A stretch of DNA of 15,124 bases from a virus. Lineage: Duplodnaviria; Heunggongvirae; Uroviricota; Caudoviricetes. The stretch's first letter is position 1. Every line of letters starts with the position of its first letter. The position numbers were made by a program, and so were the translations under genes. Below are positions 1-14,127 of this stretch, piece after piece. A model generated the notes under the pieces. It was not told the origin of the DNA. It saw only the letters and a list, made by a program, of their open reading frames with translations, and did not search any database. The stretch lies in IMG/VR virus record IMGVR_UViG_2728369181_000009; one strand, given 5' to 3'.

Positions 1-1230
1 ATGTCTAATATTTGGTCAAAAGAAGAAACTCTGTGGAGTTTCGCGCTCTACGGCACAGCCGTTGGTGCAGGCACGCTCTTCCTTCCTATTCAGTTAGGTT
101 CGGCGGGGGCTGTGGTCCTGTTTATTACTGCTCTGGTCGCCTGGCCTTTAACATATTGGCCACATAAAGCCTTATGCCAGTTCATCCTCTCATCGAAAAC
201 ATCAGCAGGTGAAGGGATAACGGGCGCGGTAACACACTACTATGGCAAGAAGATTGGTAATCTGATTACCACGCTGTACTTCATCGCCTTTTTTGTCGTC
301 GTGTTGATATATGCAGTGGCAATTACCAACTCACTTACAGAACAGCTGGCAAAGCATATGGTTATTGATCTTCGCATCCGTATGTTGGTGAGTCTGGGGG
401 TTGTATTAATCCTGAATCTCATTTTTCTGATGGGACGCCATGCCACTATTCGGGTAATGGGATTTTTGGTATTCCCATTGATTGCCTATTTCTTATTTCT
501 TTCTATTTACCTGGTCGGTAGTTGGCAACCTGATCTATTAACAACCCAGGTAGAGTTCAATCAGAATACCCTTCACCAGATATGGATATCGATTCCCGTG
601 ATGGTTTTCGCTTTTAGCCATACGCCCATTATTTCTACGTTTGCCATAGACAGACGTGAAAAATATGGCGAACACGCTATGGATAAATGCAAAAAAATTA
701 TGAAAGTCGCTTATCTCATCATCTGCATAAGTGTATTGTTCTTTGTCTTTAGCTGCCTGCTTTCTATTCCACCTTCGTATATTGAAGCGGCTAAAGAAGA
801 AGGGGTTACCATTTTATCGGCGCTTTCTATGCTGCCGAACGCCCCAGCATGGTTGTCAATTTCCGGGATTATTGTCGCAGTAGTTGCGATGTCGAAATCA
901 TTCCTGGGTACGTACTTTGGCGTTATTGAAGGTGCCACAGAGGTCGTCAAAACAACATTACAGCAGGTTGGTGTAAAGAAAAGTCGTGCATTTAACCGCG
1001 CACTATCAATTATGTTGGTATCGCTGATTACCTTCATTGTTTGTTGCATTAACCCGAACGCGATTTCGATGATTTACGCGATCAGCGGCCCGCTCATTGC
1101 CATGATACTTTTCATCATGCCTACGCTGTCAACGTATCTCATCCCGGCGCTTAAACCCTGGCGTTCCATCGGAAATCTGATTACCCTGATCGTGGGTATC
1201 CTGTGCGTATCGGTAATGTTCTTTAGCTAA
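1..1230 (+). CDS. yqeG: HAAAP-family (serine/threonine-type) amino-acid transporter, 409 aa, polytopic membrane protein
   Basis: ORF fills 1..1230 with ATG at window position 1. Highly hydrophobic with multiple predicted TM helices. The N-terminal LYGTAVGAGTLFLPIQ motif resembles SdaC/TdcC-type transporters. Size and position next to the glyU/ygeR locus match my recollection of E. coli yqeG; the symbol is from memory, not a search. Confidence 0.8.
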   Translation: MSNIWSKEETLWSFALYGTAVGAGTLFLPIQLGSAGAVVLFITALVAWPLTYWPHKALCQFILSSKTSAGEGITGAVTHYYGKKIGNLITTLYFIAFFVVVLIYAVAITNSLTEQLAKHMVIDLRIRMLVSLGVVLILNLIFLMGRHATIRVMGFLVFPLIAYFLFLSIYLVGSWQPDLLTTQVEFNQNTLHQIWISIPVMVFAFSHTPIISTFAIDRREKYGEHAMDKCKKIMKVAYLIICISVLFFVFSCLLSIPPSYIEAAKEEGVTILSALSMLPNAPAWLSISGIIVAVVAMSKSFLGTYFGVIEGATEVVKTTLQQVGVKKSRAFNRALSIMLVSLITFIVCCINPNAISMIYAISGPLIAMILFIMPTLSTYLIPALKPWRSIGNLITLIVGILCVSVMFFS

Positions 1231-1240
1231 TATCCGTTGT

Positions 1241-1285
1241 GGATGGTTCAAAATTGCTTCAATTTTGAACCATCCCAGTTTTCAT
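1241..1285 (+). terminator. Rho-independent terminator of the transporter gene
   Basis: Perfect 15 bp inverted repeat GGATGGTTCAAAATT / AATTTTGAACCATCC (1241-1255, 1261-1275) with a 5 nt loop, followed by CAGTTTTCAT, 11 bp after the stop codon. Confidence 0.6.
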
Positions 1286-1544
1286 AATGTTCATTTGTTA
1301 TTATTCCGCCCTATCACTTCTCTCGTAATATTATATAATTATCAGCTAGTTAAACACACAAAGAGTTCTGAACATCTTAAATAAGACTATTTAAGATACA
1401 TGACGATTGCATTGCGTAAACGCTTTTTATTTACAAAAAATGGGGAAGTATTACGGCGATTGCGAAAAGTCTGAAGCGCTTGAATTAAGATAATATAGAA
1501 AATCAGATACAACAAAAATGGCAGGTAGATGATGTGAAGATAAA

Positions 1545-1563
1545 TTGGAGCGGCGAAGGGAAT
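1545..1563. repeat. Island-distal attachment-site direct repeat (partial copy of tRNA-Gly 3' end)
   Basis: TTGGAGCGGCGAAGGGAAT matches TTGGAGCGGGCGAAGGGAAT at 14216..14235 (3' end of glyU) with a single-base deletion in the G run. Confidence 0.75.
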
Positions 1564-1620
1564 AACACAACAAGCCACAAGACCAGTAATAAAGGCACAT
1601 TCGCGAGTTCTAAAATAGAT

Positions 1621-1644
1621 TCTATACACATTTCTATACACATT
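1621..1644. repeat. Tandem 12 bp direct repeat TCTATACACATT x2; motif recurs near the integrase end
   Basis: Two exact adjacent copies at 1621-1632 and 1633-1644. CTATACACAT recurs inverted at 14051-14060 (overlapping the int start codon) and CTATACAC direct at 14094-14101. Confidence 0.6.
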
Positions 1645-1674
1645 TATCACTCGCTTGGGAATTACACATCCCCT

Positions 1675-1735
1675 GTTATCCGTGATCAAGCTGGTGGATG
1701 ATCACGGATAACCGATATGGGAATCCCCATATCGG
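1675..1735. promoter_or_regulatory. Two adjacent perfect palindromes (14 bp arms with 10 bp spacer; 10 bp arms with 4 bp spacer); probable protein-binding or recombination-accessory sites
   Basis: GTTATCCGTGATCA (1675-1688) pairs with TGATCACGGATAAC (1699-1712). CCGATATGGG (1712-1721) pairs with CCCATATCGG (1726-1735). Confidence 0.45.
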
Positions 1736-1808
1736 CATCGCGTAGTTAATCGTAGTGGCTACCGTAGTAGTTGAGTAGCAGGATGTAACCTGCCAGGAAG
1801 GAAATGAT

Positions 1809-1844
1809 CGTGACTCGCCGTGACATGGCGTGATTAATCGTGAC
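1809..1844. repeat. Phased array of four CGTGA(C/T) direct repeats at exact 10 bp spacing
   Basis: CGTGAC at 1809, CGTGAC at 1819, CGTGAT at 1829, CGTGAC at 1839. The same hexamer forms the inner part of the palindrome arms at 1675-1712. Helical phasing suggests cooperative binding of a protein (Int arm sites, Xis/AlpA sites or a packaging-site array). Confidence 0.5.
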
Positions 1845-1885
1845 ACCAAACAAAAAGCCTTACCCGTAGACTTAATGTAAGGCTT
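1845..1885 (-). terminator. Rho-independent terminator for minus-strand transcription
   Basis: On the minus strand, a 9 bp stem AAGCCTTAC / GTAAGGCTT (1855-1863, 1877-1885) with a 13 nt loop is followed by TTTTTGTTTG. An alternative pairing GTAAGGC (1877-1883) with GCCTTAC (1893-1899) is also possible. Confidence 0.45.
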
Positions 1886-2640
1886 GGCTGTAGCCTTACC
1901 GAACGCTCCGCTCACCGTCGCAGCCTGTCCGGTTTCCGCCACTGATACGGCCTCACATCATCATGCTGGTGGCGTTCCTGTTGCAGCACAACGGAAACAG
2001 GCGCTGAACATCCGTTAAGTTTGCTTGCTGGTTACCGGGTTGAAATGGGTTAGTAGGGGGAGCGGTACGCATTCCACGTATCGGTTTCGTATCCGGTGGA
2101 TGTTCTGCGTACTTTTTTGCACAAGACCAGTAATGGCGGGCTTTCCGCTGGTATGCACTTTTCTTTTTGCGTACCACTTTTGCGCACTTTTTCAAGGTCG
2201 GCTCACAGATTCCCACCATTATGGGATCAGTTAAAGGGGCCGAACAAATCAATAGCTGTGGTGGTATCGTTTTGCATGTCAGGTTTTGACAGGTTTTTAT
2301 GGACTCCGAAAACTCACTGCACCAGATGTGCAATACATCGCGCTCATTTCGTTAACGTCGCGCGCGCGTACTTGTCGCAAAATGTCGCAAAATTTCGTCA
2401 TCGGACCAGAAATAAACCTTACTTCCCCGATGGGGTAATCTGTTACCGACGGTTTAACCGTCTGTGCCAGCAAAACGAAAGAATTTGCGGTTGACTTTAA
2501 GTCAGTCACAACACCCCATCTCACAGGCCGTGCCTTTCTAACTTTTTGCAATGCAATAAGTCAGGTAACGCTATGCGTTCCACCGTGTACACCGCGCCAG
2601 TAAAACCCCCAGATTCGTGGTTTTCCTGAATATCAGGAAT

Positions 2641-2931
2641 CTACCGCCGTAACCGTTCCGGCTTCTTCCACCGGTAAGTATTTTTCGCGCTCTCCCTCCG
2701 TTGTTGAGAACGGCGACGGCATGACAGCAATTCAAGAACCCTGATTCGTATGTCGCACATATCAGTGTCATTAAGCTGGATACCATCACGGCGCATCACC
2801 TCAGCCACCACACGCGCGTAATTTTCGGCGGTGACGGTATCCGGCTGCGTGGCCTCCTGTGTGCCTGTAGCCTGGCTGATTCCGGTAATACTGCGAATTA
2901 TCCCGAGTACTTCGGCTTCGGTCATTATCAT
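2641..2931 (-). CDS. Hypothetical protein, 96 aa, basic C-terminus; last gene of the metallopeptidase operon
   Basis: ORF with ATG at 2931, 35 bp downstream of the peptidase stop, with a weak RBS. The N-terminal two-thirds look protein-like; the Arg-rich tail is less certain. No recognisable motif. Confidence 0.35.
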   Translation of the reverse strand: MIMTEAEVLGIIRSITGISQATGTQEATQPDTVTAENYARVVAEVMRRDGIQLNDTDMCDIRIRVLELLSCRRRSQQRRESAKNTYRWKKPERLRR

Positions 2932-2966
2932 GGCCTAATAAATCGTCGAATGAGTTTGGCCGGGAG

Positions 2967-3638
2967 TTATTCCACCAGCAAAAATGGCGTAGCCCGGTCA
3001 ATGACGTTGATGCCGATTAGCGAGCTAACATTGCGACCATTAATAATGCTATCCCGTTCAAGCAAATGCGCTATTTTTTTCACTTCATACCAATATTGAG
3101 CCATGAGGGCTTTAGTCTTTTCAACAAGTTTAGAAAGCATTAACTCCCTGTTAGTTCGCTTATCTGTGGCGCAGATTAAATCGAGCATGTCATTTACGTT
3201 AGCCATGTCATAGCGATGAGGTAGTGAATACTTTTTGTTGAAAATATCGTTGTTTTCGTAAAGGGCTTCGCTTACTGGTCCGGCGAGGGATACAAAAGCG
3301 GCCTTTATTGCATCGCGCTTTATACCATCCGCGTAGTAACGTATGAAAGGGATAACTTTACCATCCCGCCCAACTACACCAGATTTACTATCCCGCAAAC
3401 GCCCGAGATCGTGGCTGTGAATTATGCTGTGTTTAACAACGCCCAAACACTTGGCCTCATGTACATGTTCGCCAGCAACGTAACCGTATTCATCCATAAC
3501 GGCGATAACCTGTACATCTAAGCGAATAAGCCATGCAGCTACTGCATGGCCCGCTTCGTGGAATGCTACACATCGTTTACCATCGCCTATCCAGTTATAG
3601 AACATTTCCTGCTCATATATCTGGTGAATGGCGCCCAT
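2967..3638 (-). CDS. Standalone zinc metallopeptidase, 223 aa, HEAGH motif (FtsH/M41-like or ImmA/IrrE-like), no ATPase domain
   Basis: Sequence FHEAGHAVAAWLIRLDVQVIAVMDEYG at residues 26-52 contains the HExxH zinc-binding motif in the HEAGHA form typical of FtsH-type protease domains. GAGGG RBS 8 nt upstream. Start ATG overlaps the upstream stop (TAATG). Family assignment is by motif recognition only. Confidence 0.55.
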   Translation of the reverse strand: MGAIHQIYEQEMFYNWIGDGKRCVAFHEAGHAVAAWLIRLDVQVIAVMDEYGYVAGEHVHEAKCLGVVKHSIIHSHDLGRLRDSKSGVVGRDGKVIPFIRYYADGIKRDAIKAAFVSLAGPVSEALYENNDIFNKKYSLPHRYDMANVNDMLDLICATDKRTNRELMLSKLVEKTKALMAQYWYEVKKIAHLLERDSIINGRNVSSLIGINVIDRATPFLLVE

Positions 3639-3814
3639 TACGCGCCCTCGCTTGCCAGTGAGGCCAGAGCCTTAGCCATGAGGCCGCGGGCAATCTGGTG
3701 AACGGTGGGAGCGACGCCGAGATTGGAGCGCTGGCGTTCACGTTCCTGAATGTTGCGTATGGCCTGCATCTGCTCGGCGGACAGCAGGACCGGCTTAACG
3801 TTTGGCTTTCTCAT
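3638..3814 (-). CDS. Small hypothetical protein, about 58 aa, possibly DNA-binding
   Basis: The six-frame ORF 3638..3907 overlaps the upstream gene by 113 bp. An internal ATG at 3814 (MRKPNVKPVLL...) has a GGAG RBS and lies 16 nt after the upstream TAA, so it is the likely start. Its stop overlaps the peptidase start. Confidence 0.4.
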   Translation of the reverse strand: MRKPNVKPVLLSAEQMQAIRNIQERERQRSNLGVAPTVHQIARGLMAKALASLASEGA

Positions 3815-3989
3815 TCTGTTCACTCCAGAACCGTGCATTTGATTCGTTGAGTTGCTGCAGGTTGCGACTCTGGCGATCGAAGTTATTGCGTGCCTTTGCC
3901 GCTTCAAGATCCTGACGGGTCAGCATCGGGCGGTGGGCGCGCTGTGGGTTGCCTGCGGCTAATTTCGGATCATAGATAGGCATGCTCAT
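3795..3989 (-). CDS. Small hypothetical protein, 64 aa
   Basis: ORF begins 6 nt after the stop of the 183 aa gene; hydrophilic, basic/Gln-rich. No recognisable motif. Confidence 0.4.
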   Translation of the reverse strand: MSMPIYDPKLAAGNPQRAHRPMLTRQDLEAAKARNNFDRQSRNLQQLNESNARFWSEQNEKAKR

Positions 3990-3995
3990 ATCTCT

Positions 3996-4547
3996 TTAGT
4001 GTTTTTTGCCCCAGAAGGTGGCGTTGTCAGCATTGATGCTGCGGATTGCGTCTCCTGTAGAAATTATTTTCGGAGCGATATTGTTTGCTTTCATGTAGTC
4101 GCCAACCTGCTCGAGTATATCGATAGCCTGATCCAGATGGATTTCTGACATTGGGTTAGGGTGTACGGCGCTGAACGCCTCAGCAGGGGCGTAGCGCAGC
4201 ACATCGAGCGCAACGATGCGCGGGTCGGCGTCGGGCAGTGCTGAATCGTATTTCGGCGCTACGGCACGTACCAGACGCATGAACTCAGCATTCATTGCTG
4301 TCGGTGCCGTGGAAGTAGCAGACGTGCCATTCAAACCGCGGGAAATCATATCGCTGTCGCGGGTGTACATGCGACGCAGGCGGTCGCCGGTGGCGATGCG
4401 CATTTTGCGTTCTTTCTCGAGTGTCGTTGCAAGACTTGCAATGATGGTCGCAACGGTTCCGCTGCACTGGAACTCCTCTTTACTGCCGTCGGCATACGTC
4501 ACCACGCCATCTTCGCCAGTCACTGCGATGTTTGTAATATCTTTCAT
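3996..4547 (-). CDS. Hypothetical protein, 183 aa; first gene of the five-gene operon
   Basis: ATG at 4547 with GAGG about 10 nt upstream. Preceded by an AT-rich promoter region and followed by four tightly linked genes. No family recognised; not obviously similar to P4 Sid, Delta or Psu as I recall them. Confidence 0.5.
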   Translation of the reverse strand: MKDITNIAVTGEDGVVTYADGSKEEFQCSGTVATIIASLATTLEKERKMRIATGDRLRRMYTRDSDMISRGLNGTSATSTAPTAMNAEFMRLVRAVAPKYDSALPDADPRIVALDVLRYAPAEAFSAVHPNPMSEIHLDQAIDILEQVGDYMKANNIAPKIISTGDAIRSINADNATFWGKKH

Positions 4548-4660
4548 CGGTCAGACCTCAGTATGTTCTATCGGATATTTATGTTTCATTAAACGCAATA
4601 ATGATATTTATTGTTGCAATTATTGCAATGTGTTTTTCTTGTGATAACATGCAAATTGAG
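4548..4660 (-). promoter_or_regulatory. AT-rich promoter/operator region of the five-gene operon, with perfect palindrome TTGCAAT-T-ATTGCAA
   Basis: 15 bp palindrome at 4614-4628 inside an AT-rich stretch, located between the tandem terminators (4705-4768) and the first operon gene. Flanked by inverted GACCTCA / TGAGGTC at 4554-4560 and 4658-4664. Confidence 0.45.
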
Positions 4661-4704
4661 GTCAGAACTCAATGAGTTGGTTCCAAACATGGTTACCGGT
4701 ACAC

Positions 4705-4736
4705 AAAAGCCCGTGCGTCTCCAGCGCGGGCTTTTT
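4705..4736. terminator. Bidirectional intrinsic terminator
   Basis: Stem AGCCCG / CGGGCT (4708-4713, 4727-4732) with extra inner pairs, flanked by AAAA on the left and TTTTT on the right. Confidence 0.45.
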
Positions 4737-4744
4737 ACTGGCAC

Positions 4745-4768
4745 AAAAAAGCCGGGAAAAATCCCGGC
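4745..4768 (-). terminator. Rho-independent terminator ending the replication-module transcript
   Basis: On the minus strand: GCCGGG, a 6 nt loop ATTTTT, CCCGGC, then TTTTTT. Lies 6 bp after the stop of the 95 aa gene. Confidence 0.6.
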
Positions 4769-4773
4769 CTCCG

Positions 4774-5061
4774 TCACTGACTGCAATTTTTCGATCCAGG
4801 GTATTTCCTGAATGCCTTACCATTGGGCTGATGTAATCCCATCCCGGCATGTGCCCGGCTGATGGTTTTGCGCATCTCCCCGAAATTATCCTGCCTTGCT
4901 GGTGGGCGTGCTGCCTTGTGGATACATTCCGCGCGACGTTTTGCCGCCTGCTCCCGTGCCTTGTCATCATTCGCCAGCATGATGACCTCAGCCCACCGCG
5001 CCGCCGCTCTCCGGTACAGACCACGCGCTTCCAGAGCTTCCGCTTTGCTGTCGTGAATCAT
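4774..5061 (-). CDS. Small helical protein, 95 aa, ANR-like (AraC-negative-regulator family) signature
   Basis: Start ATG overlaps the FinO-like stop (ATGA). N-terminal KAEALEARGLYRRAAARWAEV matches my recollection of the ANR family motif (Y..AA..W). Assignment is tentative. Confidence 0.45.
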   Translation of the reverse strand: MIHDSKAEALEARGLYRRAAARWAEVIMLANDDKAREQAAKRRAECIHKAARPPARQDNFGEMRKTISRAHAGMGLHQPNGKAFRKYPGSKNCSQ

Positions 5062-5600
5062 GCGCCTGTTTTCTCCTTTGCTGCCCGACGCTGACGTTTG
5101 CGTTTCTCATTCAGCGCAACCAGCCGCGTTTCTGCGTCCTGTTGTTCCTGTGGTGTCACCTCGCCGCACGGCTGGCATTTCAGGTCGTAGCGTACCCCAC
5201 CAGCCATTAAGGCGCGGTAATAGCGCGGACACTGCGCATAAGATGCCAGCGTCGCACGCAATGCCCCTGGCCCGAATGCCAGCCCCCTGACGGCGAGATC
5301 CTGCATCAGGTCGTCGAATATCCCCACCTTAAGCGGCTTCGGTGCTTCCCGGCTGAATAATTCAGGCCACAACTCAGTGAGGCGGTTAACGCGTCTGCGG
5401 TTTTTTCGCTGCCGTTTGGTCATATGCCGCCACGGTGTTGCCCCTGTGGGCTTCTGCTGCGCTTTCTGGTTACCGGGCATCACTTTATGCGCCGATGTGG
5501 TTTTATCCTGCTGCTGCGCCGCCTGCGTCGTTTTCTGCGGCGTGCCGTAAATACCTTTTGGTTTTCTGTTAATGGTCAGCTTAGTCATGCTTTGCCCCAT
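5058..5600 (-). CDS. FinO/ProQ-domain RNA-binding protein, about 176-180 aa
   Basis: Basic disordered N-terminus (KRQRKNRRRVNRL) followed by LTELWPELFS...PKPLKVGIFDDLMQDLAVRG...LRATLASYAQCPRYYRALMAGGVRYDLKCQPCGEV, which closely parallels the FinO core and the ProQ N-terminal domain (PLKIGIFQDL...RYDLDGNPCGE). An internal ATG at 5588 with a GGGG SD is the likelier start. Confidence 0.7.
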   Translation of the reverse strand: MGQSMTKLTINRKPKGIYGTPQKTTQAAQQQDKTTSAHKVMPGNQKAQQKPTGATPWRHMTKRQRKNRRRVNRLTELWPELFSREAPKPLKVGIFDDLMQDLAVRGLAFGPGALRATLASYAQCPRYYRALMAGGVRYDLKCQPCGEVTPQEQQDAETRLVALNEKRKRQRRAAKEKTGA

Positions 5601-5606
5601 CGTTAC

Positions 5607-5944
5607 AACTGTCTACCAACTGTCTACCGATATAATTGATTGATTTATTTAATGTTATTAACACATAACAAAAAAACAATCTGCAAACTGTCTACCAACG
5701 GTCTACCGCATTAATACATTGATAATTAATGATTTTTACTAAATGGTAGACAGTGTAGACAGTTAAAAGAGAAATTTAAAAAATGCCCCCTTAACTATCT
5801 GTTTTTTATATACCCCCCGTGGTGTAGGAATATAGAAATAACTGTCTACCTCTCTACCACATTGAAAATATCTTTATAATTCAAAATATTAATTGGTAGA
5901 TGGTTGGTAGAGGGTTAAGTGAATCTGTCTACCAACCGTCTACC
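5607..5944. repeat. Replication origin with iterons: at least 10 copies of (A/C)(A/C)C(T/G)GTCTACC in both orientations, separated by AT-rich spacers
   Basis: AACTGTCTACC at 5607, 5618, 5686 and 5840; AACGGTCTACC at 5697; AACCGTCTACC at 5934; CTGTCTACC at 5925; inverted GGTAGACAG / TGTAGACAG at 5745-5762; GGTAGATGG / GGTAGAGGG at 5895-5912. Directly 3' of the primase gene. Confidence 0.7.
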
Positions 5945-5971
5945 TTTACGTTTCAGCTTATAAATTTCGTA

Positions 5972-8068: not shown

Positions 8069-8269
8069 TTATTTTCCTGTCAGCAGTTCCGGTTTTATTT
8101 CCGCACGAATACAAAGTTCAGAAAAAAATTCAGGAGAACCAACAATCTCATTACTTTTCAGTCGGCATTGTGATTTCACTTTCCCTTTATCCAGGTAAAC
8201 CAGCACGCGTCCGGTGAAATCATCTGGCACATTAAGCACTACGGGTACATGCGCTTCATGATTATGCAT
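8069..8269 (-). CDS. Hypothetical small protein, 66 aa
   Basis: ATG with GGAGG RBS; start overlaps the upstream stop (ATGCATAA). Confidence 0.45.
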   Translation of the reverse strand: MHNHEAHVPVVLNVPDDFTGRVLVYLDKGKVKSQCRLKSNEIVGSPEFFSELCIRAEIKPELLTGK

Positions 8270-8495
8270 GGCTTACATCCTCCAGAGATTTTCTTCTGTA
8301 ACGCGTCTCTGCCACATATTCAGCATAGTCCGACGCAATACTAAGAATCATTTCACCCTCTGACTTGTAGCCACTGGTATTGATAAGAAAATATGCAGCT
8401 TTCATCATGTCAGCAATGCTCAACAATGCGCCCGATGTATCTTCCGGTGCGCCATCAAACTCCTGTTTCAGGGAATTAAAACGATCATCACGCAT
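8262..8495 (-). CDS. Hypothetical small protein, 77 aa
   Basis: 8 bp start/stop overlaps with both neighbours; protein-like composition. Confidence 0.45.
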   Translation of the reverse strand: MRDDRFNSLKQEFDGAPEDTSGALLSIADMMKAAYFLINTSGYKSEGEMILSIASDYAEYVAETRYRRKSLEDVSHA

Positions 8496-8871
8496 GTTTA
8501 CCCCCCTGAATGACCTGATAACCGCAACTGGTCAGCAATTCGATAAATTCCGGCAGTGTGCCGAAACAGCAATCATCACGCAGACGTTCGCAGGATACTT
8601 CAACGCCGTTTTCGTAGTGACTCACCATACACCCGGTAAAATGCAGATCATCATCGTGATGGCACGTTGACGGCTTAATCAGTCGCGCACGTTCCGCCAG
8701 CTCCAGCAATGCTTCAACGCTTCCGGCAATTGCACCATCCGGCAGGTGATAATTACTTACCACGCGTCCATTCTCCACGTTGACCAGTAGCTGCCCGGAA
8801 AATATCTCGTCAAACTGAATGCTGTTAAGGTCAGAAATTGACAGGTTATGCATGGTGCACCTCCTGTACAT
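8488..8871 (-). CDS. Hypothetical protein, 121-127 aa
   Basis: ORF in the coupled operon; alternative start at 8853 (MHNLSISD...). No family recognised. Confidence 0.45.
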   Translation of the reverse strand: MYRRCTMHNLSISDLNSIQFDEIFSGQLLVNVENGRVVSNYHLPDGAIAGSVEALLELAERARLIKPSTCHHDDDLHFTGCMVSHYENGVEVSCERLRDDCCFGTLPEFIELLTSCGYQVIQGGKHA

Positions 8872-9070
8872 CAGCCATGATAATTTTTCCGGCCTTATCC
8901 AGTGCCTGATCGGCTTTCAGCTGCACAAATGCTAAATAATGGGAGATGCATTCTGATTCTCTGGCTGCGTGTTTATGCGCCACACCAGCGATAGCAGAAA
9001 TCTCAATAAGTGAATCCATCAGCGTTTTGATAGCGTCTACCGCTGCATCAGGCCATGTTGCATTACACAT
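8846..9070 (-). CDS. Hypothetical small protein, 74 aa
   Basis: ORF in the coupled operon, overlapping its upstream neighbour by 8 bp. Confidence 0.4.
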   Translation of the reverse strand: MCNATWPDAAVDAIKTLMDSLIEISAIAGVAHKHAARESECISHYLAFVQLKADQALDKAGKIIMADVQEVHHA

Positions 9071-9428
9071 GCTCCACCTCCTGGCGAATACGGGCAGCGA
9101 ATACCATCACGCAGCCATCAGGAGATTGCTGGCGTGCTTCCTGTTCGCTGGTGGCCTCGATGTGAATCACGCGCGGTTGTGCCGTACTCAGGGCGATAAA
9201 ACGCCAGATAAAATTGTTTTCGCATTTCTGAATAAACAGCGTGTTTTCTTCGCGCCCTTTCCATGTTGCCGAGATATAGCCCATGTCATTGAGCATCTCG
9301 CAGGCATCAACCAGCGTATCGGCGGCTACGTGTACAGTGTTTTTACCGTCAGCAATGCAATCACGGTGCACCGCCAGGAAGGTGTATATAAATTTAGGGT
9401 GAGTTTGGGTATGCTGTGTTCCAGCCAT
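9063..9428 (-). CDS. Hypothetical protein, 121 aa; first gene of the leftward early operon
   Basis: Internal ATG at 9428 (MAGTQHTQTHPKF...) with GAGG RBS 7 nt upstream. This is the protein-like C-terminal segment of the artefactual 528 aa ORF and sits directly downstream of the palindromic operator. Confidence 0.5.
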   Translation of the reverse strand: MAGTQHTQTHPKFIYTFLAVHRDCIADGKNTVHVAADTLVDACEMLNDMGYISATWKGREENTLFIQKCENNFIWRFIALSTAQPRVIHIEATSEQEARQQSPDGCVMVFAARIRQEVEHV

Positions 9429-9494
9429 AATCGTTACCTCGTTTAACGGTTTGGTTAGACGCCCTGCATGTGTGCCACCACTGCGGGGCGTTGC

Positions 9495-9527
9495 TGTATA
9501 TACACCACAACAATTGGTGTATATACA
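9495..9527. promoter_or_regulatory. Perfect 13 bp inverted repeat operator (TGTATATACACCA, 7 bp spacer, TGGTGTATATACA) in the divergent control region
   Basis: Read directly from the sequence. Related half-sites ACACC-TTTT-GGTGT (9570-9583) and palindrome GTGTACAC (9587-9594) follow. Lies between the divergent starts at 9428 (-) and 9619 (+). Confidence 0.6.
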
Positions 9528-9618
9528 AATTAAATTTAAGTGTGCTACAGTGTCAAGTGTTTTATCAACACACCTTTTGGTGTAATGTGTACACACCTCA
9601 AAATAACCGGACATTCTG

Positions 9619-9924
9619 ATGGCAACAGGAAACATCAACAGCAGATCGCAAATGAAAAATATCCGCTTCCCCCATGATGTAATCGAGGAAATGGAAAATT
9701 CGAAAACGGAAGGGGAAACAATAGCCGCTTTCGTGATTACAGCCGTTCGCGGTGAAATCGCCCGCCGCCAGGCAGAAGGAAGCGGAGAAAATCCCCTGGT
9801 TTCTTCGCTCGATGCCCTAGCGCAGGTGGAAAAAATCGGAGTCAAAGCTGCCGAGGAAATCGGGCAACTCGTCACCGTCGCGCGTGAAGAACTCCAGCGG
9901 CGCAAAGCTAAAGAGCAGGAATAA
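9619..9924 (+). CDS. Ribbon-helix-helix (Arc/Mnt/CopG-like) DNA-binding protein, 90-101 aa; candidate island repressor
   Basis: From the second ATG (9652): MKNIRFPHDVIEEMENSKTEGETIAAFVITAVRGEI fits the RHH pattern (beta strand, helix A, G-x-T turn, helix B), followed by a charged helical tail. One of only two plus-strand genes in the island, divergent from the early operon. No strong SD at either start. Confidence 0.55.
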   Translation: MATGNINSRSQMKNIRFPHDVIEEMENSKTEGETIAAFVITAVRGEIARRQAEGSGENPLVSSLDALAQVEKIGVKAAEEIGQLVTVAREELQRRKAKEQE

Positions 9925-9933
9925 CCACTATAG

Positions 9934-10182
9934 GTGCCGTGGTGTGAGGAACTACGGTGCATTATTTTACAGGGCAGCGCCATGACCAACAAAGAATCAA
10001 CCAATACACCATCACCGGCACGGAAAAAACAGCGCAGAAAGATAGCGTACGAGCATGAGTCAGACAGATTCGCGCCCTGTGCGTTTGTCCTTGAGAAATT
10101 CCTTAAAGAGTACAGGTGCACAAAAATGGGGTCGCATACCTGGAAAACATCGCGGCATGGCAATGTTAAAGAGCAGGAATAG
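9934..10182 (+). CDS. Small basic protein, 66-82 aa, co-oriented with the RHH gene
   Basis: ORF with GTG at 9934 or ATG at 9982; ends in KEQE-stop on the same 15 bp sequence as the RHH gene. Coding status is moderate. Confidence 0.35.
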   Translation: MPWCEELRCIILQGSAMTNKESTNTPSPARKKQRRKIAYEHESDRFAPCAFVLEKFLKEYRCTKMGSHTWKTSRHGNVKEQE

Positions 10183-10649
10183 CCCACCAGCAAGCCAGCA
10201 TATTCACCATAATGACCCTCAGTTAAACATAGAGTCATTGGTGCAAAGCTGACACATTGCCCACCAGCCGCAAATCTGGCATTGTTGGCGATGCGTTCAA
10301 GTATGTAGCTTTCCCACTGGCGGCCCTCTGCGGTCGCCTTTGTTTTATCCAGAACGAAATCAGACATCAGATTGATCAGCACCTGGCGACCTGACAAAAT
10401 CGCATCAGTCGCGCCACCAGCAAAATTTTTTGCTTTCCGGACAGTGTGACCAACGACATTTTGCAGCAAAATATTCTGCATTTCTGGCGTGCTGTAGTAA
10501 CGGTGATCAGCGCCTTCACTCTGTGCGACCACAACGCTATAATCTGCCTCGTAGACAGTAAGCAATATGGCGCAGTAGGCTATTCGTTCACAAAGGCGCT
10601 CCGGCAACGGGGCGCTTTCTCTTTTTGTAACGGTCAGAGCGTTACACAT
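10183..10649 (-). CDS. Hypothetical protein (about 150 aa protein-like segment) with no in-frame stop before running antisense into the RHH module
   Basis: ATG at 10649 overlaps the AntA-like stop by 8 bp and the first ~150 codons look protein-like. The frame then stays open through the antisense of 9619..10182 (Cys/Ser/Arg-rich junk) to 9063. The 3' end is undefined; a disrupted gene or artefact is possible. Confidence 0.3.
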
Positions 10650-11442
10650 GGCTGTTTTCCTCCATGCGACGGGCTAACCAACGTTGCGAAAGACGAATTA
10701 ATTCAGCTTTCCGCTGGTGGTAGTCCTGGCCTAACTCAATCAGCGTGATATTGCTCTGCTCAAGGTAAGAAAGGTGCTCAAGCTGCAACGTGCTCATGTG
10801 GTCGCGTGGTTCGCCTGTGATGCCGTTCGCCTGCGCCCACTGTTTTGCAGTCATGCCACCCAGCACGATACGCGCCAGCATATTGGCTTCCGTGGTGTAG
10901 TGGTGCTGTAGAGTGTTTTTACCCAGTTCAGCCCGGTACGCCTCCAGCGCGGCGCACATCGGCTTAAAGTAGCTGGCAACGGTGATACGGGCTTTCAGTT
11001 CCCGGCGTAACGCTGCGGAACGCACTGGCGCTACCTTGTGTAGCTCCTCCTCGCATTTGATGAAGTACTGGCGAACGGCGCGGCCCTGTTCGGTGCGTTC
11101 GACCATCGCCAGTTCTTTCGCCATGTTCACGGTAATGATGTACTCAAGAGCTGTTTGCTGGCGAGATTTTGCGCTCACCGGATCGGGTCGGCTCAAATAT
11201 TCAACAACCTCATAATCCACGCTTTCCGTGAAGCCGTATTCTTCAATGCGCCCCTTGATCCACGAACGGAAAACGCGCCCTACACCTAACGCCTTATGCA
11301 ACGCTCTGGCGCTAACAATATTGGTTTCACGCCTGCCAATAACGCCAGAAATAACCGGGATAATTTCGCCGAAATTTTGTTGGCTCTGGTTTTCAGGCCG
11401 AACGAAGCCCTGCCCCTGTACGGGCGTTTTTCGCAGTTTCAT
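10642..11442 (-). CDS. AntA-domain phage antirepressor-like protein, 266 aa
   Basis: Segment ISARALHKALGVGRVFRSWIKGRIEEYGFTESVDYEVV matches the AntA/AntB N-terminal domain signature. AGGAG RBS 6 nt upstream of the ATG. Confidence 0.6.
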   Translation of the reverse strand: MKLRKTPVQGQGFVRPENQSQQNFGEIIPVISGVIGRRETNIVSARALHKALGVGRVFRSWIKGRIEEYGFTESVDYEVVEYLSRPDPVSAKSRQQTALEYIITVNMAKELAMVERTEQGRAVRQYFIKCEEELHKVAPVRSAALRRELKARITVASYFKPMCAALEAYRAELGKNTLQHHYTTEANMLARIVLGGMTAKQWAQANGITGEPRDHMSTLQLEHLSYLEQSNITLIELGQDYHQRKAELIRLSQRWLARRMEENSHV

Positions 11443-11519: not shown

Positions 11520-11717
11520 TCAGGTAGCTGTTCCGCGTGATTCCGCAATACGCTGATTAATCCACTCGTCAATTTCACTCTCAACGAAAGCAATAGCTCG
11601 CGAGCCAATTTTAACTGATGCAGGAAATTTACCTTGCCCCATAAGGCGATAAATCCATGCCTTGCTATATCCAGTTCTACGCTGAACTTCTGTTAAACGA
11701 ATAAGCGTATTTGACAT
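11520..11717 (-). CDS. alpA: AlpA-family transcriptional regulator / excisionase-like, 65 aa
   Basis: IRLTEVQRRTGYSKAWIYRLMGQGKFPASVKIGSRAIAFVESEIDEWINQR has the AlpA/MerR-type HTH pattern of CP4-57 AlpA. GAGGT RBS. Placed downstream of a P4-type int gene. Confidence 0.85.
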   Translation of the reverse strand: MSNTLIRLTEVQRRTGYSKAWIYRLMGQGKFPASVKIGSRAIAFVESEIDEWINQRIAESRGTAT

Positions 11718-12837: not shown

Positions 12838-14052
12838 TCATCCACATTTTCCGAACTTGCCATGCACCACGTTACCGCCATGTTCGAGCGAATCCATATA
12901 GTCGGCGTACCACTGTAGCATCTCGCGCCGCCCGTCCAGATATTGCGCATGGTTGTACGTGCCACGAATTGAGTTTTTATCGACGTGCGCGAGCTGCGTT
13001 TCTATCCACGCAGTGTTATAGCCCTGCTCATGCAAAATGGTGCTCATGGTGTGCCGGAATCCATGACCAGTAACGCGCCCGGCATAGCCGATACGACGAA
13101 TGAGCACATTCATCGCCATTTCACTCATTGGCTTACTGTGGCGAATACGACCGGGGAAAATAAACTGATACTGGCCTGTCATGTTTTTTAACTGCTCCAG
13201 TATTTTTATTGCCTGTTCTGGTAATGGCACGCAATGCGGACGGCGCATCTTCATTCGTTCTTTAGGCACTTCCCACAAACGATTATCAAAATCGATCTCC
13301 CGCCATTCTGCCTGCCGTAATTCCCCGGGTCTGACACCTGTCAGAATTAATAACCGCATTGCCAGTTTGACGATCTGGCTTCCGGTGTACGTATTAAAAA
13401 CGCGAAAAAATTCCGGCAGTTCGTCGGCCTTCAAATAGGCGTAATGCTCTTTTTTATGTGGAGCAAATGCGCTCACCAGGTCAGGGGCTGGATTATATTC
13501 AGCGCGTCCGGTGATGATTGCGTACCGGAACACCTCGCCGCATCGCTGGCGAACCTTACGCAATTTTTCAGTCGCACCACGGTCGTTAAGACGGGAAAGA
13601 ACCGCCAGCAATTCCATCGGCTTAATTTCTGCGATCGGCCTTGCGCCAATGTACGGAAAAACGTCTTTTTCAAACGTCTCGATCATTTCCTCGGCGTATG
13701 ACGATGACCACCTGTCGATCCGCTTTTCGTACCATTCGCGAGCGATACCCTCAAAAGTATTGCCAAATTTGCTCGCCTGTTCTCGCTTTTGGGCTTTTCT
13801 GGCCTCACTTGGATTTATACCACCAATAAGAAGCCTTTTAGCCTCATCCCTTGCAGCCCTGGCATCAGACAGAGACACATCAGGGTACACGCCCAACGAC
13901 AACATTTTGGGCTTTCCTGCAAACCTGTAGCGCAGTCGCCACCCTTTCGAACCGTTCGGCTCAATGAGCAACGAAAGCCCGTTACCGTCATTGAGCGTAT
14001 AAGCCTTTTCTTTCGGCTTCGCACGCCTGATAGCAAGGTCTGAAAGCAGCAT
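12838..14052 (-). CDS. int: P4-family tyrosine integrase, about 404 aa
   Basis: N-terminal LNDGNGLSLLIEPNGSKGWRLRYRF arm-binding-type domain; C-terminal catalytic residues (R in VRPGELRQ, HGFRHT, Y in GTYNHAQY). Adjacent to the tRNA 3' end. The ATG at 14052 (MLLSDLA...) is preferred over the upstream in-frame ATG at 14091. Confidence 0.9.
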   Translation of the reverse strand: MLLSDLAIRRAKPKEKAYTLNDGNGLSLLIEPNGSKGWRLRYRFAGKPKMLSLGVYPDVSLSDARAARDEAKRLLIGGINPSEARKAQKREQASKFGNTFEGIAREWYEKRIDRWSSSYAEEMIETFEKDVFPYIGARPIAEIKPMELLAVLSRLNDRGATEKLRKVRQRCGEVFRYAIITGRAEYNPAPDLVSAFAPHKKEHYAYLKADELPEFFRVFNTYTGSQIVKLAMRLLILTGVRPGELRQAEWREIDFDNRLWEVPKERMKMRRPHCVPLPEQAIKILEQLKNMTGQYQFIFPGRIRHSKPMSEMAMNVLIRRIGYAGRVTGHGFRHTMSTILHEQGYNTAWIETQLAHVDKNSIRGTYNHAQYLDGRREMLQWYADYMDSLEHGGNVVHGKFGKCG

Positions 14053-14127
14053 GTGTATAGCTCCAAAAAATAAATTTTGTCCTATACGCATTACTATACA
14101 CTTCTGTGTGTAGATTCTGGTAGTTGT

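Follow-up and report, generated by a model that had tools for sequence, protein, structure and literature searches.

We found that the region between two divergent genes of a phage satellite, an Icd-like gene on the minus strand and a ylcI-type gene on the plus strand, carries five copies of a short repeat at regular spacing, and that the sequence of this repeat co-varies between related loci with the N-terminal domain of the YlcI/YnfO protein encoded beside it. On the strength of sequence comparison and a structure model, this stretch (positions 9493-9597 of the 15,124-nt sequence analyzed, hereafter the window) is probably an operator array bound by the YlcI/YnfO repressor.

The window is an Escherichia coli phage-inducible chromosomal island (PICI) of the Gram-negative type. 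The definition that we used calls for int, alpA and primase genes that are codirectional and lie by a tRNA/att site, an origin downstream of pri, an accessory gene of the PerC type and no structural or lysis genes; in the window we found int, AlpA, primase, PerC and ProQ/FinO genes, a tRNA-Gly(ccc) that the island adjoins, and iterons after the primase gene (positions 1-5000 were examined less closely). On the minus strand, the integrase gene (12838-14091) is followed by a 267-aa gene, by alpA (11520-11717; PF05930, E = 2.4e-19) and by antA, which encodes an AntA/AntB (Bro-network) protein (10642-11442; PF08346, E = 7.8e-23). Further along this strand, the Icd-like, Kil-like gene (9063-9428; 121 aa; NF033153 at 80.6 bits) opens a leftward replication operon that continues with five small genes, a DUF4222 gene, a 601-aa primase gene, and the ProQ/FinO and PerC genes. 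Just downstream of the primase gene, where the origins of PICIs have been mapped (PMC10111431), there is an origin-like region without strand assignment (5600-5970; 30% GC) that holds at least 12 copies of AACTGTCTACC. Two genes are encoded on the plus strand between antA and this operon, namely ylcI (9619-9924; 101 aa) and a second, hypothetical gene (9982-10182) for a basic 66-aa product that matches phrog_21027, a PHROG of no assigned function. The leftward ATG at 9428 and the rightward 101-aa open reading frame thus flank the region just as the original prediction had it.

This arrangement is widespread. A 1.9-kb module was matched in 1346 of 5426 complete E. coli genomes, and the prototype island EcCICFT073, whose coordinates we took from the supplement of PMC6092414, presents the same gene order, with the same ylcI/icd module between alpA and the primase operon; its YlcI/YnfO gene lies on the opposite strand, 199 bp from the Icd-like gene. 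We found no mention of the ylcI module, in EcCICFT073 or in other PICIs, in the PICI papers that we consulted, and its presence in the prototype was not found described before. Gram-negative PICIs have been published as unidirectionally transcribed elements in which AlpA is an activator induced by the helper phage and the global repressor is unclear (PMC6092414).

Within the region, the original prediction had singled out a perfect palindrome with 13-bp arms, and it is indeed there: its arms, at 9495-9507 (TGTATATACACCA) and 9515-9527 (TGGTGTATATACA), are 13 nt each, 100% complementary and separated by a 7-nt spacer. The whole 15-kb window has just five long inverted repeats of such short range, this 33-bp element (9495-9527, no strand) among them. 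Folded as single-stranded DNA, it reaches -10.5 kcal/mol (z = -4.2), which none of 200 shuffled sequences equaled. The two shorter elements that were said to share ACACC/GGTGT with it are likewise present to its right, as ACACC-TTTT-GGTGT at 9570-9583 and GTGTACACACC at 9587-9597. With a GC content of 34%, the region is of a kind in which short repeats often occur, so that the palindrome and the motifs could be imagined to be chance features of AT-rich intergenic sequence. However, by our own arithmetic, only about 0.005 perfect repeats with 13-nt arms and a short spacer are expected per 15 kb. In addition, the positions of the elements are kept in ~45 distinct upstream sequences from many genera, and the repeat counts observed in these are rarely reached by shuffled sequences. 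In the sequence comparison, positional conservation and repeat counts across lineages effectively refute a chance origin already, and we give it next to no credence.

The comparison set, drawn from species genomes, IMG/VR and other assemblies, comprised ~100 related loci with the 45 distinct upstream sequences. All of the loci share one plan, which reads, in plus-strand order, Icd-like start codon, Shine-Dalgarno hairpin, GC-rich hairpin, array, conserved TATAAT-like hexamer and ylcI start. The array consists of five copies of a repeat that is specific to the locus. Their positions are fixed with respect to a conserved GTCAAG, in which the leftward -35 hexamer TTGAC(A/G) is read on the other strand. 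In every lineage examined, the same five positions relative to this hexamer carry the locus-specific repeat. Unbiased counting of 9-mers placed the copies at intervals of 22-24 bp, e.g., at -120/-98/-76/-54/-31 in one locus (L016) and at -124/-101/-79/-56/-33 in another (L011). The observed repeat count was unmatched by any of 200 shuffles in 6 out of 17 representative loci, and the matching fraction was at most 0.03 in 9.

The sites of the window can be described by a palindromic 14-mer consensus, GGTGTRTAYACACC, whose top four matches there all fall within 9381-9597. Three of the five sites are good matches: O1 (9493-9506, GCTGTATATACACC, centered at 9499.5), which agrees with the consensus at 13 of 14 positions, O2 (9516-9529, GGTGTATATACAAA, centered at 9522.5) and O5 (9584-9597, AATGTGTACACACC, centered at 9590.5), each of which agrees at 12. 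The remaining two are half-sites only in this window. O4 (9561-9574, TTTATCAACACACC, centered at 9567.5) matches at 9 of 14 positions, with a good right half, while O3 (~9538-9551, centered at ~9545) has a good left half (AAGTGTG) and a low consensus score, and was assigned by positional homology with O3 of other lineages. The centers are 22.5-23 bp apart, or approximately two helical turns, and successive sites would therefore lie close to the same face of the helix. What had been described as a single 33-bp operator thus consists of two palindromic subsites, O1 and O2, that stand side by side in an array of five with a period of 22.5-23 bp, and the long palindrome owes its perfect symmetry to the palindromic nature of the individual sites in this lineage (TGTATATACA). 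The alignments revise a second part of the original prediction as well, in which the TATATA runs served as -10 boxes: at these places, other lineages hold GGTGTGTTTCA, GGTGTAAG, GGTATTCAC, GTGAGATACA or GGTGTGGCCCAC, so that, as judged from the alignments, the runs are site sequence and not -10 boxes.

The conserved promoter hexamers lie between the repeats, in both directions, and the claim of a divergent control region was thereby borne out across genera (Escherichia, Enterobacter, Klebsiella, Xenorhabdus, Photorhabdus, Pantoea, Yersinia and others). For the leftward promoter, a -35 hexamer (TTGACA, 9551-9556, minus strand) is located between O3 and O4 and reads TTGAC(A/G) in nearly all related loci. 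Its predicted -10 partner, read from the alignments, is TTTAAT (9529-9534, minus strand), between O2 and O3 and with a 16-nt spacer; an alternative is TTAATT at 9528-9533, with a 17-nt spacer, and other lineages present TAACAT, TAATCT or TAAAGT, 17 nt from the -35. For the rightward promoter, the predicted -10 is TGTAAT (9581-9586, plus strand), between O4 and O5, which aligns with the TATAAT, TATACT, TATATT or TATAGT of other lineages; no -35 could be recognized. A simple promoter scan omits both promoters because their -10 hexamers lack the A at position 2 that it requires. Of note, the ribosome-binding site of ylcI in the window is weak.

With the promoters placed in this way, O2 directly adjoins the leftward -10 and overlaps the start site predicted for that direction near 9521, O3 falls in the spacer between the leftward -35 and -10, and O1 lies in the early leftward leader, at approximately +16 to +29 of the predicted transcript. 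On the other side, O4 is upstream of the leftward -35 and within the spacer of the rightward promoter, and O5 covers the rightward start site, predicted near 9593. We found no earlier description of such a five-site array with two-turn spacing and promoter hexamers in its gaps.

Downstream of O1, the leftward leader holds two hairpins, both on the minus strand. The first (9459-9491) is GC-rich, is followed by UCUAACCA, and is conserved across genera with a few compensatory changes; in the compared loci the GC-rich hairpin is followed, on the minus strand, by TCTAACCA. The second (9432-9448) has the form CGUUA...UAACG and presents the Shine-Dalgarno sequence GAGG in its loop, and its arms co-vary between loci (UGUAA/UUACA, CGAUA/UAUCG; read from the alignment). 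The same stretch holds leads for a possible plus-strand countertranscript over the icd ribosome-binding site, namely a conserved -10-like TATGMT and a weak R1162-like match (E = 0.69); the tail of the hairpin is not a canonical terminator.

The palindrome formed by O1 and O2 could act mainly as RNA, i.e., as a hairpin at the 5' end that guards the leftward mRNA from 5'-end-dependent decay, rather than as a protein operator. A transcript starting near 9522 would indeed have as its first 23 nt an 8-bp hairpin without a 5' overhang, followed by the two leader hairpins. Most other lineages also keep an inverted repeat there, of differing sequence and with loops of 4-15 nt (e.g., ACCTTGA-N4-TCAAGGT), a variety that fits RNA pairing better than an operator of fixed geometry. 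Yet the symmetry is perfect over all 13 arm positions, of which the transcript would contain only 8, and each arm is in itself a 10-bp palindrome with a further copy at O5, beyond the transcribed part. Furthermore, loci of the L016 type have direct rather than inverted copies at O1 and O2, and no 5' hairpin, and an RNA function leaves both O3-O5 and the co-variation with YlcI unexplained. We therefore regard a mainly RNA-based function of the palindrome as unlikely; as a function added to that of an operator it is plausible, and the two could coexist.

The candidate ligand named by the original prediction was the adjacent ribbon-helix-helix (RHH) protein. The gene encoding it, ylcI, accumulated 667, 118 and 48 substitutions at codon positions 3, 1 and 2, respectively, over 50 loci, which indicates a real gene under purifying selection. 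Its product belongs to the YlcI/YnfO family (NF041551, 64.2 bits against a cutoff of 30, residues 9-50), and identical copies are annotated as YlcI/YnfO in RefSeq. AlphaFold2 modeled the full-length protein, as a single chain, with an extended segment at residues 11-18, helices at 19-28 and 35-53, and a long helix at 59-100 (mean pLDDT 80), and gave the same result for the N-terminal 56 residues alone. The model thus presents an RHH-like N-terminal domain (~residues 9-55), with the strand-helix-helix fold of ~45 residues that characterizes the RHH superfamily, followed by a long C-terminal helix (59-100). This helix is not essential for every member of the family, since the EcCICFT073 version is 59 aa long and lacks it.

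Searches against known RHH proteins fell below significance. Pfam gave PF07704 as its only match (E = 0.0033, 18.8 bits, below the cutoff of 28.3); a profile search of the PDB gave the RHH domain of HicB at E = 1.4; phmmer and PDB searches returned no significant RHH match for YlcI; hhalign assigned probabilities of 23% to Arc and 3% to Mnt; and Foldseek found nothing for the full-length model. What YlcI, Arc and Mnt have in common is a strand motif, N-[IL]-R-[FW]-P-x-[ED]-V, in which KNIRFPHDV of YlcI aligns with FNLRWPREV of Arc. In this register, YlcI would contact the DNA through residues 12, 14 and 16. Differences between the YlcI classes fall at positions 12-15 and 17, with R16 invariant. 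The RHH assignment therefore stood as far as the predicted fold goes and fell short as a match to a curated RHH family: the model places YlcI in the RHH superfamily by fold, and it is not demonstrably homologous to Mnt or Arc. RHH dimers insert an antiparallel beta-ribbon into the major groove at repeated or palindromic sites, and the window offers palindromic sites of 10-14 bp. No functional study of YlcI/YnfO was found in the full-text literature, and nothing functional on PICIs together with RHH proteins.

Among the neighboring proteins, YlcI is the only one whose sequence co-varies with the repeats, in line with the role of ligand originally proposed for it. The E. coli lineages are mosaic: identity between them is only 30-67% over the operators and ylcI codons 1-40 but 85-100% over the 3' half of ylcI, and it can reach 97-100% over the leader and the start of icd. 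We compared the clusters of each component over 41 distinct combinations, and calculated their adjusted mutual information (AMI) with the operator cluster. The AMI was 0.72 for the N-terminal 55 residues of YlcI, 0.34 for its C-terminus, 0.31 for the Icd-like N-terminus, 0.06 for the leader and -0.04 for the replicase. The pairing holds across genera: the strand QLTTVRV goes with GGTGTGTTTCA in E. coli, Xenorhabdus and Photorhabdus, and the strand QSLTARI with GGTGTAAG in E. coli, Klebsiella and Enterobacter. Some of this co-variation could be linkage, because the operators and the 5' end of ylcI are physically adjacent; the leader is equally adjacent and does not co-vary, but with only two clusters it carries little information. 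Joint travel of a DNA-binding domain and its sites, as these comparisons suggest, is the pattern of an immunity cassette.

The same comparison bears on whether the repeats are bound by some other factor, such as AlpA, the primase/replicase (the repeats being iterons), or a protein of the helper phage or the host, with YlcI having a different role. A period of 22-23 bp is typical of plasmid iterons too, and the α protein of P4 binds short repeats. However, replicase type is independent of repeat class, as reflected by the AMI above, and one pair of loci (L025 and L026) has identical repeats and an identical YlcI with different replicases; more generally, each YlcI class occurs with 3-9 replicase clusters and 3-13 AlpA types. 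The island also possesses separate iterons of an unrelated motif in the low-GC, origin-like region at 5600-5970, just after the primase gene, a position at which PICI origins are reported (PMC10111431). On these grounds we rejected the switch repeats as origin iterons. We likewise rejected AlpA as the binding partner, its types being shuffled among the operator classes. A host or helper factor would leave unexplained why lineage-specific motifs track the N-terminus of YlcI. Binding by any of these other factors is accordingly very unlikely in our judgment.

Taken together, these observations suggest a mechanism in which dimers of YlcI/YnfO would bind the five ~14-bp pseudo-palindromic subsites, which in this lineage follow the consensus GGTGTRTAYACACC. 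As the subsites interleave with the core elements of the back-to-back promoters, cooperative assembly on them, probably bridged by the C-terminal helix, would shut the leftward operon, from the Icd-like gene to the primase gene, and would autoregulate ylcI. The N-terminal domain and the operators would form an exchangeable specificity cassette, much like a phage immunity region.

An alternative is that ylcI and the 66-aa gene constitute a self-contained autoregulated cassette, e.g., one resembling a toxin-antitoxin pair with an RHH antitoxin, whose array controls the rightward unit only, leaving AlpA alone to drive the leftward operon. The 66-aa product has no Pfam or NCBIfam match and falls only in phrog_21027, thus giving no indication of a type II toxin-antitoxin system, and its gene is not called in several loci. 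Moreover, the leftward TTGACA -35, with a -10 spaced 16-17 nt from it, is kept across genera and has O1-O3 placed around it, and the conserved position of the module beside the replication operon argues for control of that operon. We thus consider a cassette that controls only itself quite unlikely, and favor YlcI as a repressor of the replication operon.

Repression by YlcI would nevertheless be only part of the circuit. The region, which had been taken as simply intergenic, is crossed by an open frame on the minus strand, and in the prototype EcCICFT073 the master regulator shown experimentally is the activator AlpA (PMC6092414); the description of the region as a master switch was therefore an overstatement. 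The frame of the Icd-like gene contains no stop for 415 codons upstream of that gene. In all, the stop-free frame spans 9063-10649 (minus strand, 528 codons) in register with the Icd-like gene, covering, in antisense orientation, the 66-aa gene, ylcI and all five subsites. The ATG of this frame, at 10649, shares bases with the antA stop codon (ATGTGTAA) and follows a GGAGGA. The long ORF was treated in earlier annotations as part of a unidirectional operon; the antisense embedding of ylcI in it was not found described before.

Most relatives, in all classes and genera, have 200-450 open codons in the same frame. In the operator regions of 15 representatives, the icd frame presented no stops, compared to 2-9 in each of the other minus-strand frames, and in a shuffling test of 13 representatives, 12 were free of operator-region stops in this frame (P ~0.01-0.03 per locus). 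Given the protein sequences encoded opposite, the antisense frame would be open by chance in 18% of cases across ylcI and in 25% across the 66-aa gene. Because this part is often open by chance, the evidence for selection on the frame comes from the operator region and the downstream non-coding stretch. The upstream part of the frame has no family match, and between 10190 and 10646 the minus frame presented no codon periodicity in 26 mismatches, few loci being suitable for this comparison. Translation of the 528-codon frame is putative, and the frame may either encode a functional polypeptide or only have to be translated.

Several features point to transcription entering this frame from upstream. 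Terminator-like hairpins between ylcI and antA all face the plus strand, and a reporter in the gene that follows alpA in EcCICFT073 is switched on by AlpA (PMC6092414). By analogy, alpA is the probable source of read-through transcription into the switch: transcription driven by AlpA would cross alpA, antA and the stop-free frame and so reach the replication operon. On its way it would meet ylcI head-on. The circuit therefore probably comprises two promoters, with the YlcI switch as one arm and not as sole master, and induction would probably not occur solely by relief of the repressor, as AlpA-driven transcription would enter from upstream via a translationally coupled, stop-free frame.

This layout resembles that of satellite P4, which likewise has an alpA/vis homolog, a long ORF overlapping its stop, a nested in-frame Kil/Icd-like gene and a primase operon. 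The eta ORF of P4 (8168-8812) overlaps the vis stop and ends with an in-frame kil, and the N-termini of P4 Kil and the Icd-like protein align over 20 aa (E = 4e-5). In P4, a constitutive early promoter (PLE) lies inside eta, and translation of eta from the upstream late promoter prevents termination (PMC10111431), which offers a ready explanation for the conserved stop-free frame found here. The frame in the window similarly overlaps an upstream stop, contains a predicted early promoter and ends in-frame with an Icd-like gene. It would thus be the counterpart of eta with its nested kil, leading across the operators, antisense to ylcI, as far as the replication operon, and since it crosses the region as eta does, an upstream promoter probably bypasses the switch. 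P4 immunity relies on the CI RNA (of the Rfam C4/isrK type) and premature termination, whereas here an opposite-strand protein gene and a repeat array occupy the place where P4 keeps its CI RNA. No C4 or isrK match was found at E up to 1 over the window or at E up to 10 over 9380-9640, and we rejected a P4-type CI/C4 RNA immunity on this basis; conversely, tblastn at E 1e-3 found no YlcI homolog in P4.

Other known systems resemble single aspects of the proposed switch. Mnt of P22 consists of an N-terminal RHH domain and a C-terminal helical oligomerization domain, and the predicted architecture of YlcI is Mnt-like. In the immI region of P22 (Mnt/Arc, Pant/Pmnt), as proposed here, back-to-back promoters are overlapped by the operators of small RHH repressors. 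Ant/Bro-type and Icd-type genes neighbor the region in the window, as they do in immI of P22 and P1. However, homology is not detectable beyond the strand motif (see the hhalign values above), the window has five subsites at two-turn spacing where P22 has one operator per repressor, the predicted target here is a replication module and not an antirepressor, and here a long open frame on the other strand encloses the repressor gene. Cooperative repression by several RHH dimers that occupy short repeats along one face of the promoter DNA is known from CopG of pMV158, omega of pSM19035, ParG and MetJ. Their repeats are 7-13 bp long and contiguous or one turn apart, unlike the ~14-bp repeats at 22.5-23 bp, with promoter hexamers in the gaps, that we describe. 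Lambdoid imm regions are similar in that the DNA-binding domain and its operators are exchanged together between near-identical elements, giving rise to discrete specificity classes; there the domain is helix-turn-helix rather than RHH, and here the cassette boundary lies inside the repressor gene, between the N-terminal domain and the conserved C-terminal helix, an internal boundary that we did not find described.

Functionally closest is Stl (Rpr) of the SaPIs and Gram-positive PICIs, with its divergent str/xis promoters, in that a divergently encoded repressor silences the replication module of a satellite. Stl proteins are larger, of the helix-turn-helix type, and unrelated to YlcI in sequence and fold. 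They also differ in having helper-phage proteins that are known to bind them as inducers, while in the Gram-negative PICI activation by AlpA exists in parallel (PMC6092414).

Beyond the window, we tentatively put forward a broader hypothesis, which we regard as quite possible though not yet probable: Gram-negative PICIs, including EcCICFT073, may carry an overlooked RHH repressor of the YlcI family, encoded antisense in an eta-like ORF, with exchangeable five-site immunity cassettes that set cross-repression. This repressor may be the global repressor that was left open in 2018, and the switch may be flipped by AlpA-driven, translation-coupled read-through that collides with ylcI transcription and overrides the repressed internal promoter. 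PICIs are widespread, move virulence and defense genes, and are being engineered as delivery vehicles, and the published model of the Gram-negative islands contains the activator AlpA only (PMC6092414). If the hypothesis is true, an RHH repressor with lineage-specific operators would be the missing negative arm of this circuit, and immunity or incompatibility groups among islands would become predictable. The YlcI/YnfO family, represented by two genes in E. coli K-12, would also gain its first assigned function, and protein-based control would be seen to replace the RNA-based immunity of P4 at the same position, in a nested overlapping arrangement.

The leftward replication operon opens with the Icd-like gene (icd, 9063-9428, minus strand), and fold prediction places three hairpins in its predicted leader (window 9429-9522, minus strand). 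The first is at the 5' terminus; the second is GC-rich, spans 9459-9491 and precedes UCUAACCA; the third, at 9432-9448, presents the Shine-Dalgarno sequence within its loop. Conservation, including some compensatory changes, is seen for the second and third, and at 9421-9493 the R1162-like antisense-RNA region (RF00043) gives a sub-threshold match (17.9 bits, E = 0.69). On the plus strand, a -10-like hexamer (TATGCT, TATGAT, TATAAT or TAGACT) is found at 9405-9420 and at the equivalent place in related loci, 4 or 10 nt ahead of the triplet complementary to the icd start codon, and it is kept even though the encoded N-termini differ. Judged from the sequence, this hexamer, combined with the leader hairpin and the T-rich tail that the hairpin has on the plus strand, could give rise to a short countertranscript across the icd ribosome-binding site; against this candidate stand a poor -35 element and a hairpin tail that is non-canonical as a terminator. 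The icd coding region also contains an additional match to the consensus of the proposed YlcI sites (11/14, GGTGTATATAAATT) at 9381-9394, at a distance of 112 bp, or about 5 x 22.4, from O1 (9493-9506) and found in the window's lineage only.

In register with icd, a stop-free frame of 528 codons (9063-10649, minus strand) runs antisense across the operator array (9493-9597), ylcI (9619-9924, plus strand) and the 66-aa gene (9982-10182, plus strand). Its start ATG overlaps the stop codon of antA (10642-11442, minus strand), with GGAGGA just ahead of it. The frame is kept in most relatives, and the operator region contains no stop codon in 12 of 13 representatives (P of about 0.01-0.03 each). 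Its positional analogue in the satellite phage P4 is eta, a long ORF that ends in kil in the same frame. Three terminator-like hairpins lie 3' of ylcI, at 9934-9960, 10319-10338 and 10593-10618, all of them facing the plus direction, the first separating ylcI from the 66-aa gene; in the window, no minus-strand terminator of comparable kind was seen between antA and icd.

The Icd-like protein itself matches PHROG families named 'transcriptional repressor', and the same product name is attached to the P4 ORF at 8168-8584, annotated as 'cI gene product'. Because P4 immunity is exerted by the CI RNA, this label was probably carried over to the Icd-like protein and misleads.

Elsewhere in the window, an origin-like region (5600-5970, 30% GC) directly 3' of the primase gene carries the 11-nt repeat AACTGTCTACC at least 12 times, with copies in both orientations, as well as an inverted repeat with 17-nt arms (5895-5944). 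An Rfam int-alpA RNA match (RF02996; 12726-12793, minus strand; 40.3 bits, above the gathering score of 35.8) has the integrase gene on one side and the 267-aa gene on the other, and two perfect inverted repeats are located at the window's left end, one at 1241-1275 (16-nt arms, 3-nt spacer) and the other at 1675-1712 (14-nt arms, 10-nt spacer).

Turning to YlcI, the 3' half of its gene (9760-9924), which encodes the long helix, retains 85-100% DNA identity between lineages whose 5' halves have diverged; on sequence grounds, this points to a partner or function that the helix has in common among lineages, or else to recent recombination. The 59-aa YlcI variant of the prototype PICI EcCICFT073 (3474-3653 of the E. 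coli CFT073 locus) is without this helix, its RHH domain being fused straight to the last residues (RRKAKEQE). This island also has a stop-free ORF of 428 aa (2767-4053), which begins past alpA, with an AntA-like N-terminal remnant, and continues until the Icd-like gene ends. The sole YlcI match in the phage collection was to Pasteurella 'phage' Pmp7 (OR544138, 4853-5029; 37% identity over 53 aa, E = 1e-4), where it lies antisense within an annotated 224-aa 'transcriptional repressor' ORF, so that here again the annotation went to the ORF on the strand opposite YlcI. The Pmp7 genome, at 10.7 kb, is satellite-like, and the range of the ylcI module may therefore include the islands of Pasteurellaceae.
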